Origin: Escherichia virus TH47
Length of the DNA: 64,000 nt
Direction: 5' to 3' (one strand)
Sequence record: MT446416.1
Below the pieces are notes generated by a model. It made no database searches and had not been told where the DNA came from. It worked only from the letters and a program-made list of their open reading frames with translations. A program made the position numbers and the translations under genes. Every line of letters begins with the position of its first letter. Within the stretch, counting starts at the first letter, position 1. Positions 21,259 to 33,750 of this stretch are shown piece by piece.

Positions 21259-21810
21259 CTATAGATAGCTGATTAGTAAGTTTTCTTTTTGTACAAGATA
21301 CTCCAATTCTTGTTTCGCAGTTCCGATGAAGTTCTGTGTCATAAGATTATTATATCCTGCTTCTCGATTTTGTCCCTTAGAATAACGTGAGATGTGACAT
21401 AAATTTACACCCGCCACCTCTGCACTAGCATGTTTGCCATATGCATAATTATCACGAAGTTTTTTAAGTTCAGCATAAGTCATTTCATAACTATAGCTAT
21501 GGGTGTGTCCCTCTGGAAACAATTCAAGTGATTTTAATGGAGACAGGCGACTTTTGTCAATGATATAGTTCATTTCTTCTTGAACTTCACGCTGTAACGC
21601 ATCTTCTAATGACTTATCAGTACTTTCAACTGTTCCACCACATGCACCCAACAATCCATCCCAACGCACTTGTAGGAGTACTAAGTTAACCACTGGAATA
21701 TCATTTAGTTCATAATCAGCGTATGGGGTACATTCTTTTGCATAAAAGAAACAGAATACAAAATTTGCACGTTTCCCCATTTGCCCCAGTGGTACTTCAG
21801 CTTTACTCAT
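21259..21810 (-). CDS. Nudix-hydrolase-like protein
   Basis: GGTVE...REVQEE resembles the Nudix box (G-x5-E-x7-REUxEE) but the spacing is not canonical. Confidence 0.4.
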   Translation of the reverse strand: MSKAEVPLGQMGKRANFVFCFFYAKECTPYADYELNDIPVVNLVLLQVRWDGLLGACGGTVESTDKSLEDALQREVQEEMNYIIDKSRLSPLKSLELFPEGHTHSYSYEMTYAELKKLRDNYAYGKHASAEVAGVNLCHISRYSKGQNREAGYNNLMTQNFIGTAKQELEYLVQKENLLISYL

Positions 21811-22559
21811 CGCATTCGTTCCTTAATTATAGTTTCAACCTGTGGAATTGCTTTCGTCGCAGGTTTGATGACCTTCTCATTAAAAAGAAAATCATTATCA
21901 TTTTTTCGGATGTTCACATTTACACTATAGCATGGAAGTGCACCAGCTAGTCTGGACCATACCAGTACTGTATCACTGCTTCCAATAACTACAACTGTAT
22001 CATTTTCGGTGAGACTTTTCAACACTTCATTTCGTTCTTCATAAATGGGGAGACGTACCCCATCAACGTAGCGATGGTACTCACCAATCATCACTACATT
22101 TGGTTTTGCAAAAACATCAGCTTTAGGGATATATGGTTCATAACCACAATTAATGACATTGTAATCATCAGTATTAATAGAAAAGTTCTCAATTACTTCA
22201 CATAGATTTCCGTGTAGTTTGAGTTCGGTTCCACCAATTCTAGTATATAGATCATCCATATTAGAAGTCATGTGTAAAAAACAATCACCATACAAATCTT
22301 CTAATGATTTAATAAAGTAATGCATTTCATTAGGATGACATTCTCCTAATTTTACACGCAATGTATTATAAAATGAATGAACTACATGATACTTAGAACT
22401 AAGTCGTGCAATGTTACAAACATCATTAATTTTGAAATTGTCCCACAACCCATCATCAAAGCGGAATGGTTCCATCCCGCTCTCAACTGAAAGACCTGCC
22501 CCTGAAATTATAAGTAATCTTTTGTTCCCAGCATTTTGTATAAATTTATCTGATATCAC
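21807..22559 (-). CDS. SIR2-family (sirtuin-like) protein
   Basis: ISGAGLSVESGMEPFR near the N-terminus matches the sirtuin GAGIS-x-ESGIP-x-FR NAD-binding motif; downstream LHG. Confidence 0.65.
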   Translation of the reverse strand: MISDKFIQNAGNKRLLIISGAGLSVESGMEPFRFDDGLWDNFKINDVCNIARLSSKYHVVHSFYNTLRVKLGECHPNEMHYFIKSLEDLYGDCFLHMTSNMDDLYTRIGGTELKLHGNLCEVIENFSINTDDYNVINCGYEPYIPKADVFAKPNVVMIGEYHRYVDGVRLPIYEERNEVLKSLTENDTVVVIGSSDTVLVWSRLAGALPCYSVNVNIRKNDNDFLFNEKVIKPATKAIPQVETIIKERMR

Positions 22560-23736: not shown

Positions 23737-24345
23737 CTAATGAATGATACTACCTAATTCGAACAACTGCTCTGGTGTAAGTCTTACAACTTCATCACCA
23801 CGAACTTTACTAACCTCCACTAACAATTCTGGAGGAATACCATTCGCTGCATATAACGCAAATAGAACACCAACCTTAGTTGATAGCTGTTCTGCAAAAA
23901 TAGTCATTTGGCGAACTGTTATGTATGTGTCATCACTATTTCGTGCTTTACTTTCGATTGACACATTATGTAGACCTAGAATTGAGTCCTTCATCATGTA
24001 TCTGTTTTCTATATTAGCACTAAAGAATGCGATAGTGCAAGAAGAATTACAATATCTTTCAACAATAATTGTTAAATTGTTATCATTGACAAAATTTCCT
24101 AGTGCCACTCCCGCATCAAAATCACCACCTGGTGACGTAATGATGATAGTGTCAAATGGGTGTGTTTCTCTAAAAACCATCAAACGGTTTACAGTATTTT
24201 CAGTTAAAGTTGAAATGAACTGAACTGTCTGTTTAGATTCATCATATCTAATGATACTTTTTCTTTCATCACCTGCACTTGCAGGAAAGTTAATTAAGAA
24301 AATAATAATAATAGATTGGATGATTTCTTTACATAATCGTACCAC
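23737..24345 (-). CDS. secreted ClpP/S49-superfamily protease-like protein
   Basis: N-terminal signal-peptide-like segment ending ASA; IITSPGGDFDAGVALGNFV resembles the ClpP/SppA SPGG segment. Confidence 0.45.
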   Translation of the reverse strand: MVRLCKEIIQSIIIIFLINFPASAGDERKSIIRYDESKQTVQFISTLTENTVNRLMVFRETHPFDTIIITSPGGDFDAGVALGNFVNDNNLTIIVERYCNSSCTIAFFSANIENRYMMKDSILGLHNVSIESKARNSDDTYITVRQMTIFAEQLSTKVGVLFALYAANGIPPELLVEVSKVRGDEVVRLTPEQLFELGSIIH

Positions 24346-24472: not shown

Positions 24473-24502
24473 TTGTATGATTATATCACACTAATGTATA
24501 AT
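24473..24502 (+). promoter_or_regulatory. candidate sigma70-like promoter on the plus strand (TTGTAT-N18-TATAAT)
   Basis: Read in the 280-bp intergenic region; would start a transcript of about 120 nt ending at the 24605-24627 terminator. Confidence 0.25.
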
Positions 24503-24604
24503 GTCTATGCTTTTGTTAACAAATAACGTGGTAGTACTGAACTCGTTGTTGGTTCTAAGAGTTTTCCTGAAATTCAAACAAGTTGTGTACTAACAAAAGA
24601 AAAA

Positions 24605-27224: not shown

Positions 27225-27275
27225 ATAATCTCCAGAAATAAGATGCCCCAAATGAGGCATCAAATGAAATTCAAA

Positions 27276-27971
27276 TTAGACCCACTCTTCCACGCCACCG
27301 CGACGTTTGACGAGATACTTACCTTCTTCGTTGCGTGGACCAAGGATGATACCATCAATGAAACCATGTTCACCGTATTCGAGTGCTTCTTCAGCGTTCA
27401 ACCACAGGTCACGGTCAGCATCTTTCAGTAGTTGTTCGTGTGATACACCAACTGCTTCAGCAATTTCTTTCGTCAATAGTGTGTTCAATGCGTCAGAGTG
27501 TTTCAAAGAAATCTTCTGATCGGTAATCAGACCCTGAGTACCGGAACTCACTTGGTGACACATGAAGTAAGAACGCTTACCACCTAGACGGAAACCTTTA
27601 GTTCCAACTACTGATTGTGTATAGCAACCCATTGATGCTGCATAACCCATTACTACTGTACGGATAGGAGATACACAAGACTTAGCAATGTCAGCGATAC
27701 CCAAACCTGCGTGTACTGAACCACCAGGAGAACTAATGTAGAAGGTAATTGGTTCAGAACCCTGAGAATCCAACCACACCAATTGTTGCTTGATGATATG
27801 TGCCATTTGGTCATTGAAGTCAGTATCAAGGAAAATGATACGGTCTTGCATCATACGAGATGCTAGGTCATAAGTACGTTCTGCACCATTAACTTTTTCA
27901 ACTACATAAGGAATAGAAATGTTGCGAACTTCACCACCAGCATAACCACCAAAATTGAATTGTTCAACCAT
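27276..27971 (-). CDS. clpP: ATP-dependent Clp protease proteolytic subunit (ClpP-like)
   Basis: RIIFL...ISSPGGSVHAGLGI...GYAASMG...MCHQ matches the ClpP fold and Ser/His catalytic motifs; AGAGGA Shine-Dalgarno. Confidence 0.85.
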   Translation of the reverse strand: MVEQFNFGGYAGGEVRNISIPYVVEKVNGAERTYDLASRMMQDRIIFLDTDFNDQMAHIIKQQLVWLDSQGSEPITFYISSPGGSVHAGLGIADIAKSCVSPIRTVVMGYAASMGCYTQSVVGTKGFRLGGKRSYFMCHQVSSGTQGLITDQKISLKHSDALNTLLTKEIAEAVGVSHEQLLKDADRDLWLNAEEALEYGEHGFIDGIILGPRNEEGKYLVKRRGGVEEWV

Positions 27972-28030
27972 TGTTATTTTCCTCTATTGTTTCATTGATG
28001 TGAGTATTATATCACAGTGTTCGTATTTGT

Positions 28031-28414
28031 CTACAAGTTTCTTAAAAAATCTAGTAAACCGCAAATTGTATGTTTATTAAACATATCGTGGTCAATCTTT
28101 AACAACTTAACCATAGCATTATCATACACCGTAGAGTCGGTAATGTCAAACAAAGAATTTGTGTAATAACGTTCATTTTCTACATAAATGTATAATTCAT
28201 TTGATTTGTCAAGATCTTCATAGAAGTTAGCATCAAAGTACTCTGCATTTCCATCAATCCAAACCTCAACTGAATCATCATATAAGCAGTAGTTTCTTGC
28301 TTCTTTTGAATATATTTCCAGCTTTCTGGCTGCACTGGAGTAATGTTTATAACCATTAATCACGTACTTGATTTCATCATTGTACTCAATTATATATACA
28401 ACAACATTTTCCAT
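28031..28414 (-). CDS. hypothetical protein
   Basis: 127-aa ORF. Confidence 0.5.
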   Translation of the reverse strand: MENVVVYIIEYNDEIKYVINGYKHYSSAARKLEIYSKEARNYCLYDDSVEVWIDGNAEYFDANFYEDLDKSNELYIYVENERYYTNSLFDITDSTVYDNAMVKLLKIDHDMFNKHTICGLLDFLRNL

Positions 28415-29624: not shown

Positions 29625-30482
29625 TTATTTTATTCTTACCCCACCCCAATTCTCATATATTTCAATGATTTTGTCAATGTCTAAAGGTGATGTGGTTTCG
29701 GTATATCCGTCTTTCATTTCACGAGCATCAAGTACATGTGAAAAAGTTCTTTTACATTCAGCTTCTGCTGATTTACATAACGTGACCGATTCAAACTCCC
29801 ATACGCCACAATTATTAACATCATAGATGGAATGTTTATTTTGGGATTTTTCTCTGGTTGTATAATTATTGGCAATACCATATTTTAATGCAATAGGAAC
29901 CCCACTGTCAAGTACTAAATTTATGTAACATTGTTGTTGGTTGTTTCCATTACATGAACACGACACTTTACCACTTTTGAGATTACCCTGTTGACATTCA
30001 CATACATCTCCACATACTGGACATTTATAAAACCAAAATATCGGATGTCCATGATTATTCAAACGCTTAGATCTCCAAAACTTTGTACATGGATGGTATT
30101 TGCCAGTACTAAGAAAATCGTTTATATGAATATTATCATCAAACAATCTACTCTGGCCTATTCTTTCATTACCACAATCATTACATGCTTTGTCATGAAA
30201 CAGTAAATTGTCAATAGATGTTGTATTCCAGTATCCATGTTTTTTGCAATGCATTTTTAAATGCACCAACCCTTTTTGACGCACGGAATCCCATGAATCG
30301 TAAAAACCAAGGAAAGTATATCCTAACTGATTGCATTTTTCATAAACTTTCATCGTATATTGATATTTTGTCTTTTTAGATGAATTTGAACAATCACATC
30401 CTATTTTACCTTTTGAAATATTACTTTTCATTGATGCAAATATTCCAGTTCCGTGACATTTTAGGATTTTGTTTACATACAT
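29625..30482 (-). CDS. Cys-rich zinc-ribbon protein with C-terminal T5orf172-like (GIY-YIG-related) domain; putative nuclease
   Basis: Multiple CxxC pairs; C-terminus ...ALKYGIANN...DGYTET resembles the T5orf172 domain; start uncertain (ATG at 30482 or 30431); overlaps the 30421-30705 ORF. Confidence 0.4.
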   Translation of the reverse strand: MYVNKILKCHGTGIFASMKSNISKGKIGCDCSNSSKKTKYQYTMKVYEKCNQLGYTFLGFYDSWDSVRQKGLVHLKMHCKKHGYWNTTSIDNLLFHDKACNDCGNERIGQSRLFDDNIHINDFLSTGKYHPCTKFWRSKRLNNHGHPIFWFYKCPVCGDVCECQQGNLKSGKVSCSCNGNNQQQCYINLVLDSGVPIALKYGIANNYTTREKSQNKHSIYDVNNCGVWEFESVTLCKSAEAECKRTFSHVLDAREMKDGYTETTSPLDIDKIIEIYENWGGVRIK

Positions 30483-30705
30483 CACATTGTTCAAAATACA
30501 TCTTAGTATAACCACCGACACCGGTTCTGACGAAACCAATTATAGAATCGTGGTTTGAACAATACTCATCAGTTTCAAGATTATTAATATCAAAATTTTT
30601 GGGAAGCCATTTGTATTTTTCTTCCCAAATTTTATATGATATTAATAATGGATCTCCGCTATTATATAAATTGAAATAATCCGTTATTTCTTTATCAATT
30701 TTCAT
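30421..30705 (-). CDS. hypothetical protein (possibly the frameshifted N-terminal part of the downstream Cys-rich gene)
   Basis: 94-aa ORF overlapping the next ORF by 62 nt in another frame. Confidence 0.35.
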   Translation of the reverse strand: MKIDKEITDYFNLYNSGDPLLISYKIWEEKYKWLPKNFDINNLETDEYCSNHDSIIGFVRTGVGGYTKMYFEQCDVCKQNPKMSRNWNICINEK

Positions 30706-32120
30706 TACTTTATAGAATTTAGTAGTTTAGTACTGAATACTTCAATTGAACTCTCTTTAATTTCAAGGATTCGTTCGAAGCTATCACCAGTATCTTTATC
30801 ATCACGTATACAATCAAATACAGGTAAAAACAAACTTGGTTCATTAGTTCTTTTATCATATACAATATCATTACAAATACAAGTTACAATTTTGTCATAT
30901 AATGAATTTCTGTTATTCCATATATCATCCAACATTTCATCAGTGAACCCAGTACCACAATTTGTTTTTAGAGTACCACATTCAGATTGAAGTGTCAATG
31001 CACCAAGTGTTCCTTTTCGTTTACCTGAACCTTCAATAAAATCTACAATACGCAAATCAACCTCCATTTTCAACTTCACTTTTAGGCACGTTGGTGATGT
31101 GTGTGATTTAAATACAGAGTCACAACTTTTAATAATACTACCCTCTTCACCACGTGACATTAGTTCAGTATTGTAATCAAATGCATCTTTGAAATTTTTG
31201 AATTTTTTAAATTCAACCATACGAACAAATGTATTATTAACTTCTGAAATGGCTTTGACTAAATGTTCTCTGCGTTCTATTAGTTTGCAATTCCATGAAC
31301 CATTATTATAATTATCTAATGGTATTGCATCCCATAAACAAAATGCCACACTTTGTGCTTCCAATAAAGTTATAGTATTTTTGCCATCACCAGCTTTGGA
31401 AATTATACCATTATTATATGTTCGGGGCATTACAGTTTCACCATCTTCACCACCAAGACACACACCCTCACCAATCAATGCAATACCATTAGCATACACA
31501 GGATCAATTTTAGCTAATTCCGAAGCAATAGCATTCAAAACATCATCTTTTGTTCCAAGAAAATCATATACTTTTGCATTTCTACTGGTGGTTACAATTA
31601 CACCATTTTTGATAGTGTGTGCAAGATAAGTTCCATCCATTTTAACATCGCTGTAAAAATAATCATAATCTTTTAAGTTGATGTTTTTAATAGTTTTCTC
31701 GGTAAGAAGACTACAACGCTGGTATGGAACTTCTGAAATAAAGCCTTTACCGAATACATCATTACAGTTCTTTTCCTGAATACCACAATCAAGGTTCTTG
31801 GTAAGCATTTTACGAAGAACTTCCTGATCATCTTCAGAAACAGCACCCAGTACTGAAGCAATGAAGTCACGTCCAGCATTTCCGGTCACACCACGTTTGT
31901 AAATGCATTCTAGCTTATCAATAGCTTCGTCTAATGTCATATGTTGATATACATCATCAGCTTGTGGTAGCTTTTTATACCCACTTACAATTGAAGGGTC
32001 TAGTGTATATTTCAGTACTTTTTGTAATGTTTGGTTATCTTTGTTTTGTTCAAGGATAGCTTTTTTACCCAGAGTACTGCTAGTATTTTTAATGCTTTCA
32101 AGAATTGCTAAAATGCTCAT
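30705..32120 (-). CDS. ATP-dependent DNA ligase (T4 gp30-like)
   Basis: N-terminus MSILAILESIKNTSSTLGKKAILEQNKDN parallels T4 ligase as I recall it; nucleotidyltransferase motif I VKMDGTY. Confidence 0.85.
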   Translation of the reverse strand: MSILAILESIKNTSSTLGKKAILEQNKDNQTLQKVLKYTLDPSIVSGYKKLPQADDVYQHMTLDEAIDKLECIYKRGVTGNAGRDFIASVLGAVSEDDQEVLRKMLTKNLDCGIQEKNCNDVFGKGFISEVPYQRCSLLTEKTIKNINLKDYDYFYSDVKMDGTYLAHTIKNGVIVTTSRNAKVYDFLGTKDDVLNAIASELAKIDPVYANGIALIGEGVCLGGEDGETVMPRTYNNGIISKAGDGKNTITLLEAQSVAFCLWDAIPLDNYNNGSWNCKLIERREHLVKAISEVNNTFVRMVEFKKFKNFKDAFDYNTELMSRGEEGSIIKSCDSVFKSHTSPTCLKVKLKMEVDLRIVDFIEGSGKRKGTLGALTLQSECGTLKTNCGTGFTDEMLDDIWNNRNSLYDKIVTCICNDIVYDKRTNEPSLFLPVFDCIRDDKDTGDSFERILEIKESSIEVFSTKLLNSIK

Positions 32121-32131
32121 TGTATATTCCC

Positions 32132-33334
32132 TTATAGATAATACTTTCCAATGTAAAGTGTATTACTTAGTGATAGCTGGACGTGACAAGGTTTTTCTTG
32201 GTAGTAACGAGTTGATGATGTTTTATTTTCTGTTGGTGGGAAGAAAGGAGAACGGTATCCATTCCATGTACCAAATGATACATGTTCGTTTAAATCCACA
32301 TCCATTGTCATAATGCCATTAGCATCAATTTCAACTGGATACGCACTGTATCGTTCAAATACATCAGTGTATTGAAGAATATAATCACCATTACGACCAT
32401 AATAACTTCTGGTTGTATTGTTCTTTACACCAAAGAAAACACGATATGCCTGTTCATCAACTTTACACATGAACGGTACGTTCTCGTTGAATCGTCCATT
32501 ACTCATTATATCATCAGGATTGATTTCTTCGTACTTTACTTTCAAATCTTGTGCTTTAAACGACTTATCACTTATCAGTACTGGAATATTGCTTTCACAT
32601 AATGGGTTACTGCGATTTCGTTGGATATTTTGCCAGAATGCATTAGCTTTAACAATTTCATCTTGAACTGTAGTTTTTACATTCAGTGCAGCACTTGGTT
32701 CTAACGCATAAGTTTCAAGACGAGCATTAAGAGCATATGTCCCACGAGTAGTATTATATACTAAGTGATACTTGGAACTCTTATCAGAAAATGAAAACTC
32801 TTTAGTTTTCTTGATACAAATAGCATTTACTTTACCACAATAATAGTAATCTTCCTTATTGTGTCTAAAACCATCACCCACTTTCAATTTAGAAACAACT
32901 TCTTTTTGATGTTCTTTCTTATTCTCCTTCTCAACCAATTTAGCAAAGGTTTTAGTTTTACCGTTAATTAGTTCTAAACTATTATTAAAGAACATAGGTT
33001 CAACAAATACACCCTTAACAATATCATTGTTGATGATAAGGTCGTTCATGTTTTTAGCACTCACCAAGAACTCGAAACCTTCAGGGTGACGTATGGTGAA
33101 GTATGTTTCACGAGCATGAACAGTGAGCTTATGTACCACAGAAAACCCAATTGTAGGCACATTATCAATCCATAGTGACGGTAGATTGTTTTTCTTAGCC
33201 CAGTACTCGGCCTTTTCTTTTTTAGTCTCAAACGCTTTTGTGTGTGATTTTGTGGCATCTATAATATAACCAGTAACTTGGTTATGATTTACATATGAAC
33301 GAGCCACAAATAACTTCTCTGGAAAATCCATCAA
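32132..33334 (-). CDS. hypothetical protein (400 aa)
   Basis: Large ORF; no motif recognised. Confidence 0.55.
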   Translation of the reverse strand: MMDFPEKLFVARSYVNHNQVTGYIIDATKSHTKAFETKKEKAEYWAKKNNLPSLWIDNVPTIGFSVVHKLTVHARETYFTIRHPEGFEFLVSAKNMNDLIINNDIVKGVFVEPMFFNNSLELINGKTKTFAKLVEKENKKEHQKEVVSKLKVGDGFRHNKEDYYYCGKVNAICIKKTKEFSFSDKSSKYHLVYNTTRGTYALNARLETYALEPSAALNVKTTVQDEIVKANAFWQNIQRNRSNPLCESNIPVLISDKSFKAQDLKVKYEEINPDDIMSNGRFNENVPFMCKVDEQAYRVFFGVKNNTTRSYYGRNGDYILQYTDVFERYSAYPVEIDANGIMTMDVDLNEHVSFGTWNGYRSPFFPPTENKTSSTRYYQEKPCHVQLSLSNTLYIGKYYL

Positions 33335-33750
33335 ACAGTCCTCATTGTACTAATTGCTTTTAATGTGTTAAACAATGCACCATATTTTACTTGCATTAGT
33401 TGATCCCCAGCAGGAAGATTCATACGCATAACAGACATGTCTTCAACCATTTCAGATGTACACAGTACTGCTACACATGTAGTTGCATCATTTAATCCGG
33501 CTTCATTGAATTTAGCGAATGGCACTTTTCCCTGCTTACAAAGGTCATCATAATAAGAATTTAACTTATCATGACCGCCAGCATTTAGTACTACAATAGT
33601 TTCGTGGTCATAATACCATTCATCAATAATAGTACTGAAAGCAGTACCTTCATATTCTTTAATTAGTTTTACGCCAGCATGAAATGCTTGAATTCCTGCT
33701 TGTACACCTTGGCAGTACATGTTTGTTAAGCAATATAATTTCATTTCCAT
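33331..33750 (-). CDS. hypothetical protein
   Basis: 139-aa ORF. Confidence 0.5.
   Translation of the reverse strand: MEMKLYCLTNMYCQGVQAGIQAFHAGVKLIKEYEGTAFSTIIDEWYYDHETIVVLNAGGHDKLNSYYDDLCKQGKVPFAKFNEAGLNDATTCVAVLCTSEMVEDMSVMRMNLPAGDQLMQVKYGALFNTLKAISTMRTV

Follow-up and report, generated by a model that had tools for sequence, protein, structure and literature searches.

A clpP gene was found in a 64,000-nucleotide stretch of the genome of Escherichia virus TH47 (sequence record MT446416.1), which is called the window here. It is an ATG-start open reading frame (ORF) at 27276..27971 on the minus strand, encoding 231 aa, with the stop codon at 27276-27278. The first-pass annotation, which was made from the sequence, had placed a ClpP protease at these coordinates and with this length; the strand, which it left unstated, is added here. 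The Shine-Dalgarno sequence that it rated as good was read from the sequence as AGAGGA (27980-27985, minus strand, i.e., 27985-27980 in the direction of the gene), with 9 nt from GAGG to ATG. Upstream, the 59-bp gap 5' of clpP holds a putative sigma70-type extended -10 promoter (28006..28033, minus strand), recognized by consensus match. Its parts are TAGACA (28033-28028), a 16-nt spacer, TG (28014-28013), and TATAAT (28011-28006), i.e., 11/12 consensus positions and the TG. Downstream, a hairpin resembling an intrinsic terminator (GATGCCTCATTTGGGGCATC followed by TTATTTCT; 27232..27261, minus strand) lies 15 nt past the stop codon and may end the transcript there. The genes around clpP are all on the same strand and encode anaerobic ribonucleotide reductase, PhoH, NUDIX, Sir2, dCMP deaminase, metallophosphoesterase, DNA ligase, polynucleotide kinase, and RNA ligase. 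These are genes of nucleotide and nucleic-acid metabolism, as expected for the non-structural block in which clpP had been placed.

The identity of the protein was established by domain, sequence, and structure searches. It matched the Pfam CLP_protease profile with E=1.3e-41 and 142.9 bits (cut-off 20.2) at profile positions 2-179/182, and the motifs on which the initial ClpP call was based, i.e., RIIFL, ISSPGGSVHAGLGI, GYAASMG, and MCHQ, are all present. The closest PDB sequence matches were bacterial ClpPs throughout (S. pneumoniae 1y7o, 3.3e-36; E. coli 1tyf, 4e-31). These alignments start at residue 19-20 of the phage protein and include the axial-loop segment. An AlphaFold2 model, built with 80 homologs as input, had a mean predicted local distance difference test (pLDDT) value of 92.2 and a predicted TM score (pTM) of 0.85. 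When the PDB was searched with this model in Foldseek, all of the top 50 hits were ClpP, with TM 0.91-0.96 (relative to target) and a root-mean-square deviation (rmsd) of 1.0-2.0 A.

The catalytic residues were assigned by alignment with E. coli ClpP, whose reference sequence was checked and is 100% identical to PDB 3mt6. The Ser-His-Asp triad of the phage protein is S113/H139/D188, equivalent to S97/H122/D171 of the mature E. coli enzyme, and it was invariant in a first set of 17 homologs and again in a larger set of 120. The codons lie on the minus strand at 27633-27635 (Ser113), 27555-27557 (His139), and 27408-27410 (Asp188). The catalytic Ser and His picked out by the first reading were confirmed in this way, and proper alignment left all catalytic residues in place. 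An inactive, ClpR-like subunit was considered as well and was ruled out, because the triad and the oxyanion residues are invariant. The gene is, as its sequence predicts, a genuine and intact ClpP-type protease subunit that should be catalytically competent.

The two NCBIfam models of cellular ClpP aligned over the full length with scores under their cut-offs, i.e., TIGR00493 with 153.3 bits (cut-off 308.6) and NF001368 with 156.4 bits (cut-off 249). On these scores, the phage protein belongs to the ClpP family as a divergent member but falls short of a strict equivalog. With bacterial ClpP (MEROPS S14; the E. coli ClpP of ClpAP/ClpXP) it shares the full-length CLP_protease domain, the triad, the oxyanion residues, the R170/D171 pair, the N-terminal axial loop, and the fold, with rmsd 1-2 A. 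The identity is only about 36-45%, and a short N-terminal extension stands where E. coli ClpP has its propeptide. By contrast with the bacterial gene, the phage clpP is virus-encoded and unlinked to its unfoldase gene.

The regions of ClpP that contact unfoldases were compared residue by residue between 66 phage-clade and 45 cellular ClpP sequences. The axial-loop or hairpin region, residues 19-40 (IPYVVEKVNGAERTYDLASRMM; 27852..27917, minus strand), is conserved in the clade. The equivalents of E. coli P4, V6, E8, E14, R15, D18, S21, and R22 in this N-loop were kept in 62-66 of the 66 phage-clade sequences. In front of it, residues 1-18 form a poorly conserved extension of low model confidence, with pLDDT <50 at residues 1-11. 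By analogy with E. coli ClpP, whose propeptide has 14 aa, this extension may be a propeptide. For the pocket that receives the IGF/IGL loop of the unfoldase, the positions compared are those that line it in E. coli ClpP. Most of its hydrophobic residues were kept in the phage clade (the equivalents of Y62, I90, M92, L48, F49, F112, and L189). Three positions were changed clade-wide (E. coli numbering): V44 is V in 41/45 cellular ClpPs and K in all 66 phage sequences, F82 is Y/F in 40/45 and N/S in 54/66, and L114 is L in 42/45 and G in 62/66. In the window protein, the residues at these three positions are K61, S98, and G131. Hence the alignment of docking residues that had been proposed as a check gave a divided result, with the N-loop and most pocket hydrophobics kept and V44K, F82N/S, and L114G altered.

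Two further differences were found. The phage clade has HQVSSGTQG where cellular ClpP has HQPLGGxQG, together with a 3-residue insert. At the C-terminus, residues 210-231 form an extension of about 20 aa ending in LGPRNEEGKYLVKRRGGVEEWV (27279..27344, minus strand), which is specific to the phage clade and absent from cellular ClpP. The extension is conserved across the clade and 100% identical between the window and phage phAPEC6. AlphaFold2 predicted it as an ordered beta hairpin, with strands at 207-213, 219-222, and 228-230 and pLDDT >90. Taken together, the pocket changes, the insert, the HQVSSGTQG segment, and the predicted hairpin suggest a retuned docking surface.

The window DNA is 95-98% identical to the Asteriusvirus phages vB_Ec-M-J, CMSTMSU, EC.P1, Turkey3, fEgEco12, and WPEC5, of which vB_Ec-M-J (about 98%) is the closest relative, and about 84% identical to 121Q, PBECO4, and phAPEC6. 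The group is that of the Rak2-like jumbo myoviruses, which have genomes of 350-390 kb and T4-like head genes. Among other Rak2-like phages (RaK2, K64-1, GAP32, CBB, 121Q, PBECO4, phAPEC6, and Serratia BF), ClpP is 66-100% identical. Orthologs with 66-74% identity were found in Klebsiella phages RaK2 and K64-1, Cronobacter phage GAP32, Serratia phage BF, Yersinia phage fHe-Yen9-04, and Erwinia and Salmonella jumbo phages, and more distant ones with about 34% in PA5oct-like Pseudomonas phages. In phages of Escherichia, Klebsiella, and Serratia, clpP keeps its position between DNA ligase and dCMP deaminase, and in Pseudomonas phage MIJ3 it does so loosely; the Rak2-like and PA5oct-like phages share this neighbourhood, and a phage ClpA and a ClpS-type gene are always encoded alongside. 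No difference of substance separates the window gene from its Rak2-like relatives, of which it is one more allele. In CMSTMSU, clpP and clpA are each split into several pieces, for which sequencing frameshifts are the probable cause.

In a large protein database, about 66 phage ClpP clusters, mostly from contigs of about 350 kb, were found at 61% identity or more, and the identity then dropped to about 45% for cellular ClpPs. Judged by these identities, phage ClpP is an old phage lineage and not a recent host capture. Recent capture of a host clpP was tried as an explanation and was ruled out by the 36-45% identity to cellular ClpPs and by the distinct phage clade. The gene showed a ratio of nonsynonymous to synonymous substitution rates (dN/dS) of 0.045 at dS 0.66, i.e., strong purifying selection. 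Because of this deep conservation, the fixed synteny, and the low dN/dS, clpP resembles a core housekeeping function more than an arms-race gene.

Some ClpP-like proteins of phages are prohead proteases, and the public annotation points to such a role here. The top PHROG of the protein is phrog_94, 'head maturation protease' (9.5e-44), and several GenBank and RefSeq records carry that name. A role in the prohead or elsewhere in virion assembly also draws on the mass spectrometry (MS) of CBB virions, in which ClpP (CBB_104) was listed with 1 peptide and 4.5% coverage (PMC5259590), which was graded as weak, and on the place of clpA in a region of tail and baseplate genes, which makes some link to assembly possible. 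ClpP-like prohead proteases (PHROG 94, NCBIfam NF045542) have in common with the phage ClpP a ClpP/crotonase-like fold and serine-protease chemistry. However, such proteases are encoded between the portal and capsid genes, frequently as a fusion with scaffold or capsid, and they are without the unfoldase-docking N-terminal loop, whereas the phage ClpP has this axial loop in full, as unfoldase-dependent ClpPs do. The phAPEC6 head module is at 141-147 kb and clpP (gp353c) at 263.7 kb, i.e., about 120 kb away and inside the DNA-metabolism block. The module comprises gp225c, the major capsid protein (Pfam Gp23, 1e-89), gp226c, the scaffold, gp227c, a Peptidase_S77 of the T4 gp21 family (9.9e-21), and gp230c, the portal (Portal_T4, 5e-112). 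This S77 protease, which is separate from ClpP, was found in 73 phage records at 60% identity or more, a number equal to the size of the Rak2-like clade.

Virion proteomics, apart from the CBB peptide, points the same way. The phAPEC6 virion MS (Table 1) listed gp227c (S77), and gp353c (ClpP) and ClpA were absent (PMC7247149). RaK2 virions contain the gp21-like gp092, which was credited with capsid cleavage, and Clp is mentioned nowhere in that text (PMC3622015). The model for ClpP-related head maturation proteases, NF045542, scored 51.1 bits against a cut-off of 120, whereas the cellular ClpP models scored 153-156. For this reason, the phrog_94 label is taken to reflect shared ClpP fold and homology, not function. 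A head-maturation role was rejected because of where the gene lies, the existence of a separate S77 protease, the data on virion proteins, and the NCBIfam scores; the promoter class of clpP, described below, is also absent before structural genes. It is therefore very improbable that ClpP is a prohead or other virion-assembly protease. The first-pass annotation had already argued that the protease is not morphogenetic, and the position of clpP outside the head module and the S77 protease in virions agree with it. It had also stated that T4-type phages use a different prohead protease; a gp21-type S77 does lie in the head module of the relatives, although the phage is Rak2-like and not T4-type in the narrow sense.

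An unfoldase gene was found in the same phages. The products of phAPEC6 gp246c and vB_Ec-M-J EcMJ_316 are ClpAs of 762 aa. The phAPEC6 protein aligned with E. coli ClpA from the N-domain through the end of D2 (E=2.4e-180), and the best NCBIfam model for the phage ClpA was ClpA, with 752 bits. The ClpAs of vB_Ec-M-J, phAPEC6, RaK2, CBB, BF, and MIJ3 were aligned with E. coli ClpA, and both Walker (AAA) modules and the GYVG pore loop were invariant in the six phage proteins. The ClpP-docking tripeptide, IGL in E. coli, is IGM in vB_Ec-M-J and phAPEC6, IGV in RaK2, LGM in CBB, VGM in BF, and IGF in MIJ3. At 60% identity or more, ClpP was found in 69 records and ClpA in 70, with nearly equal counts per host genus. 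A ClpS-like gene was found in 71 records at 80% coverage or more, in the same genera as ClpP and ClpA. In vB_Ec-M-J, the three genes occupy separate loci, i.e., clpP at 81.7 kb, clpA at 168.7 kb, and the ClpS-like gene at 252.8 kb. As full-length ClpA and the ClpS-like adaptor are co-inherited across the clade, the natural unfoldase partner of the phage ClpP is taken to be phage-encoded.

The ClpS-like protein has about 177-181 aa and is homologous to GAP32_314 (Pfam ClpS, 9.4e-11). No Asteriusvirus ClpS was found with E. coli ClpS as query; it was recovered with the GAP32 ClpS as query and with a family profile. When a profile of six phage ClpS-like proteins was run against the PDB, every match was a ClpS structure (3.5e-9), and hhalign aligned it to E. 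coli ClpS with 96% probability. The N-degron pocket of E. coli ClpS is formed by N34, D35, T38, and H66. The phage proteins keep the equivalents of D35 and T38, and at the H66 position Asteriusvirus has N, GAP32 has K, and BF has H. The phage proteins have added N- and C-terminal regions.

The neighbours of the partner genes were also compared. In Asteriusvirus, RaK2, GAP32, BF, and SE_PL, the ClpS-like gene always sits between a phage IF3 gene (IF3_N and IF3_C) on its 5' side and a KTSC-domain ('DnaJ-like') gene on its 3' side; in vB_Ec-M-J this locus is 250272-255802. In MIJ3, dnaJ lies directly 5' of clpA. The arrangement of IF3, ClpS-like, and KTSC genes, with the dnaJ-clpA pair, suggests a conserved translation/proteostasis cluster. 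In vB_Ec-M-J, RaK2, CBB, and BF, i.e., in four genera, clpA is a lone gene on the opposite strand between a virion gene of about 1.5 kb and a giant virion structural gene of about 10 kb.

The phage-encoded partners bear on the role that was first suggested for the protease, the hijacking of the host ClpX or ClpA unfoldases. In such a case, the phage ClpP would dock mainly on host ClpX and/or ClpA, or mix with host ClpP subunits, and so redirect degradation. The conservation of all the N-loop residues that contact unfoldases and of most pocket hydrophobics is in line with it. Besides, ClpX was not found in Asteriusvirus, where the Escherichia matches were short contaminant-like contigs or zinc-finger-only proteins, so that ClpX-type delivery could come only from the host. 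However, a complete ClpA, whose docking loop reads IGM in the closest relatives and whose gene has the promoter class of clpP, is co-inherited clade-wide, and so is the ClpS-like adaptor. V44K, F82N/S, and L114G replace near-invariant pocket residues of cellular ClpPs, an extra ordered hairpin is predicted at the C-terminus, and the low identity to cellular ClpPs excludes a recent host copy. Hijacking as the main mode of action is accordingly considered improbable; use of host ClpX or ClpA is possible but would be unnecessary.

Other giant phages encode similar sets of Clp genes. Atu_ph07 has ClpX, ClpA, ClpB, ClpP, and ClpS, and Lak phages and Salicola phage SCTP-2 have ClpX and ClpP, so that ClpP is likewise accompanied by a phage-encoded unfoldase. 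The unfoldase repertoire of these phages includes ClpX, which is encoded in addition by PA5oct-like phages, whereas Asteriusvirus has only ClpA.

The putative promoter of clpP belongs to a family of repeated motifs. In the window, 5 copies of the strict motif were counted where 0.1 would be expected, all of them on the coding strand. A relaxed form, GACA-N13-TGATATAAT, i.e., GACA-N13-TG(A/C)TATAAT, has 10 copies, which all lie on the minus strand and mostly in intergenic gaps. The copies are at 53443-53418, 51683-51658, 49962-49937, 43869-43844, 39032-39007, 34918-34893, 28031-28006 (clpP), 24505-24480, 21374-21349, and 19118-19093. In phAPEC6, the clpP promoter is kept with a diverged spacer, and the terminator stem is kept with a different loop. 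K64-1 has TTGACA-16-TGtTACAAT 5' of clpP. The same motif, with a perfect TTGACA, is upstream of clpA in vB_Ec-M-J and phAPEC6. In the 49-kb structural region of phAPEC6, only 3 copies were found: one before clpA, one before a gp55-like late sigma gene, and one at a site without annotation; none precedes a structural gene. The motif is probably the early/middle promoter class of Rak2-like phages, which would be read by the host sigma70 polymerase. Because the late sigma factor must precede late transcription, we infer that clpP and clpA, with the same promoter class, are expressed before the late genes by host sigma70 RNA polymerase.

From these observations, clpP probably encodes the subunit that carries the proteolytic activity in an ATP-dependent protease of the ClpAP type encoded by the phage itself, which would be expressed from its own pre-late unit and act in the cytoplasm. 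The host sigma70 RNA polymerase would transcribe clpP as its own unit ahead of the late (virion) genes. The protein would assemble into a barrel and be fed by the phage ClpA unfoldase through the hydrophobic-Gly-hydrophobic docking loop, with the divergent ClpS-like protein as a possible adaptor. Such a ClpAP would act on phage and/or host proteins in the infected cell's cytoplasm, both ahead of virion production and while it proceeds, and not inside the prohead. Its role may be conserved proteostasis or timed turnover, which would free a very large and slow phage from host Clp levels.

The substrates could instead be host proteins of defence. In this alternative, which the first reading had also named and which is compatible with the partnership with phage ClpA, the phage ClpAP(S) would degrade host defence proteins or key regulators. 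The patchy distribution of ClpP among jumbo phages was taken as a sign of deployment against the host (Iyer et al. 2021, PMC7824862), and the predicted pre-late expression from a host-sigma70 promoter is consistent with this. A divergent ClpS-like adaptor with an altered pocket could also provide new specificity. Nevertheless, the genes are core, syntenic, and under dN/dS of 0.045 in the Rak2-like and PA5oct-like lineage, unlike typical anti-defence genes. In PADLOC, no match was obtained for ClpP, the ClpS-like protein, or a second Clp-like protein of the window (see below), and the ClpA matches were generic AAA+; experimental support for this role was not found. It is therefore less likely than the general ClpAP reading, while being the strongest of its competitors. 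Our best guess is that proteostasis or timed turnover is favoured over a fast-evolving anti-defence weapon, because clpP behaves as a core gene and because of the neighbours of its partners, i.e., the IF3-like and KTSC/DnaJ-like genes, dnaJ by clpA in MIJ3, and the giant virion gene beside clpA.

Several points weigh against a phage-encoded ClpAP. Both ClpP and ClpA scored under the curated equivalog cut-offs of NCBIfam. The genes for ClpA and the ClpS-like protein lie outside the window, and their presence in TH47 is deduced from relatives that are 97-98% identical. The Asteriusvirus ClpS-like protein on its own is below the Pfam ClpS model, and its residue at the N-degron-binding His66 position is N. 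With most pocket hydrophobics and all N-loop residues conserved, docking of host ClpX/ClpA is possible. In Serratia phage BF, no promoter was found directly before clpP, which is operonic there, and the 2.5 kb preceding the ClpS-like gene contained no copy of the common promoter motif. The CBB virion peptide and the location of clpA, discussed above, count here as well. In the searched literature, no experiments on expression, assembly, partners, or substrates were found for phages of the Rak2-like clade, nor any experimental work on a phage ClpP, ClpA, or ClpS, and no phage-encoded ClpAP has been characterised biochemically there. The paper on PA5oct omics contains no reference to Clp, and that on fEgEco12 none to Clp or to a protease.

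A more specific form of the phage ClpAP model was also considered. The pocket changes, the hairpin, and the IGM-type loop could make the Rak2-like ClpP and ClpA an orthogonal, host-insulated pair that is blind to host ClpX/ClpA, to which the divergent ClpS-like protein, through its altered N-degron pocket and added terminal regions, would deliver dedicated host or phage proteins for timed degradation early in infection. This is a speculative proposal and is considered improbable.

A second, very divergent ClpP/S49-like protein is encoded in the window at 23737-24345 on the minus strand (202 aa, GTG start). It matched Pfam CLP_protease at 21 bits against the cut-off of 20.2 and phrog_26024, 'protease', at 8e-69. 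The N-terminus resembles a Sec signal peptide (…FLINFPASA|GD), and the protein has an oxyanion-like motif, SPGG, as well as candidate residues for the Ser and His positions, although the hhalign probability was only 55%. Its promoter (24480-24507, minus strand) is TAGACA-16-TGaTATAAT, as for clpP. The protein evolves fast: compared with the 121Q group, its aa identity is about 51%, against 96% for ClpP. It was absent from the proteins detected in virions of phAPEC6, and it may be exported and act as a protease on the envelope. A ClpP1/P2-type partnership of the two proteins was set aside on the basis of the signal-peptide-like N-terminus, the weak ClpP alignment, and the much faster evolution. 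In some records, this second protein is mislabelled 'head maturation protease' or 'ClpP subunit 2'.

Between the metallophosphoesterase and DNA ligase genes, two extra ORFs were found at 29625-30705 on the minus strand, which are absent in vB_Ec-M-J and the other closest relatives. One encodes a Cys-rich protein of 304 aa with a CapR homology domain (1.2e-8), and the other has 94 aa. The adjoining 3' part of the ligase gene (30705-31633) had no megablast-level match. The insert and the ligase tract look like a mobile insertion of the homing-endonuclease type with a co-conversion tract. The early-type block of clpP also includes a Sir2-family protein (21807-22559, minus strand; 1.3e-19) and a weak match to a PTH2-like peptidyl-tRNA hydrolase (33331-33750, minus strand; 8.5e-5, at the cut-off).

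The names of the Clp genes in public records are varied. Besides 'head maturation protease' for ClpP, the labels include 'porphyrin biosynthesis' (PA5oct RefSeq) and 'virion protein and lysozyme murein' for ClpA and, for the ClpS-like gene, 'ATP-dependent protease' and 'DNA gyrase subunit A'. Bacterial clpP, clpX, or clpA genes are present in many short 'phage' records, e.g., OR845177.1, 'Listeria phage LM 4-11-1', and contigs of 2-20 kb named 'Bacteriophage sp.'; in one 'Escherichia phage' contig of 3 kb, the encoded ClpX is 100% identical to that of E. coli. These Clp-bearing records look like bacterial contamination, which inflates the counts of phage Clp genes.

The phage clpP is already annotated: dozens of jumbo-phage genome records contain the same or almost the same protein under the name ClpP. 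Attai et al. 2018 (PMC6102473) listed the Clp genes of Rak2-like phages, and a host-directed role of jumbo-phage ClpP was proposed by Iyer et al. 2021. What is added here is, first, a correction of the 'head maturation protease' label, since a gp21-type protease has that job. Second, ClpP, ClpA, and the ClpS-like protein are described as a dispersed, co-inherited trio, in which clpP and clpA have a common, predicted pre-late promoter class. Third, the clade-wide changes in the docking surface raise the question whether ClpP is a host-insulated protease. The putative phage ClpAP would be worth studying, though without urgency, to learn how protein turnover is handled in very large phages.

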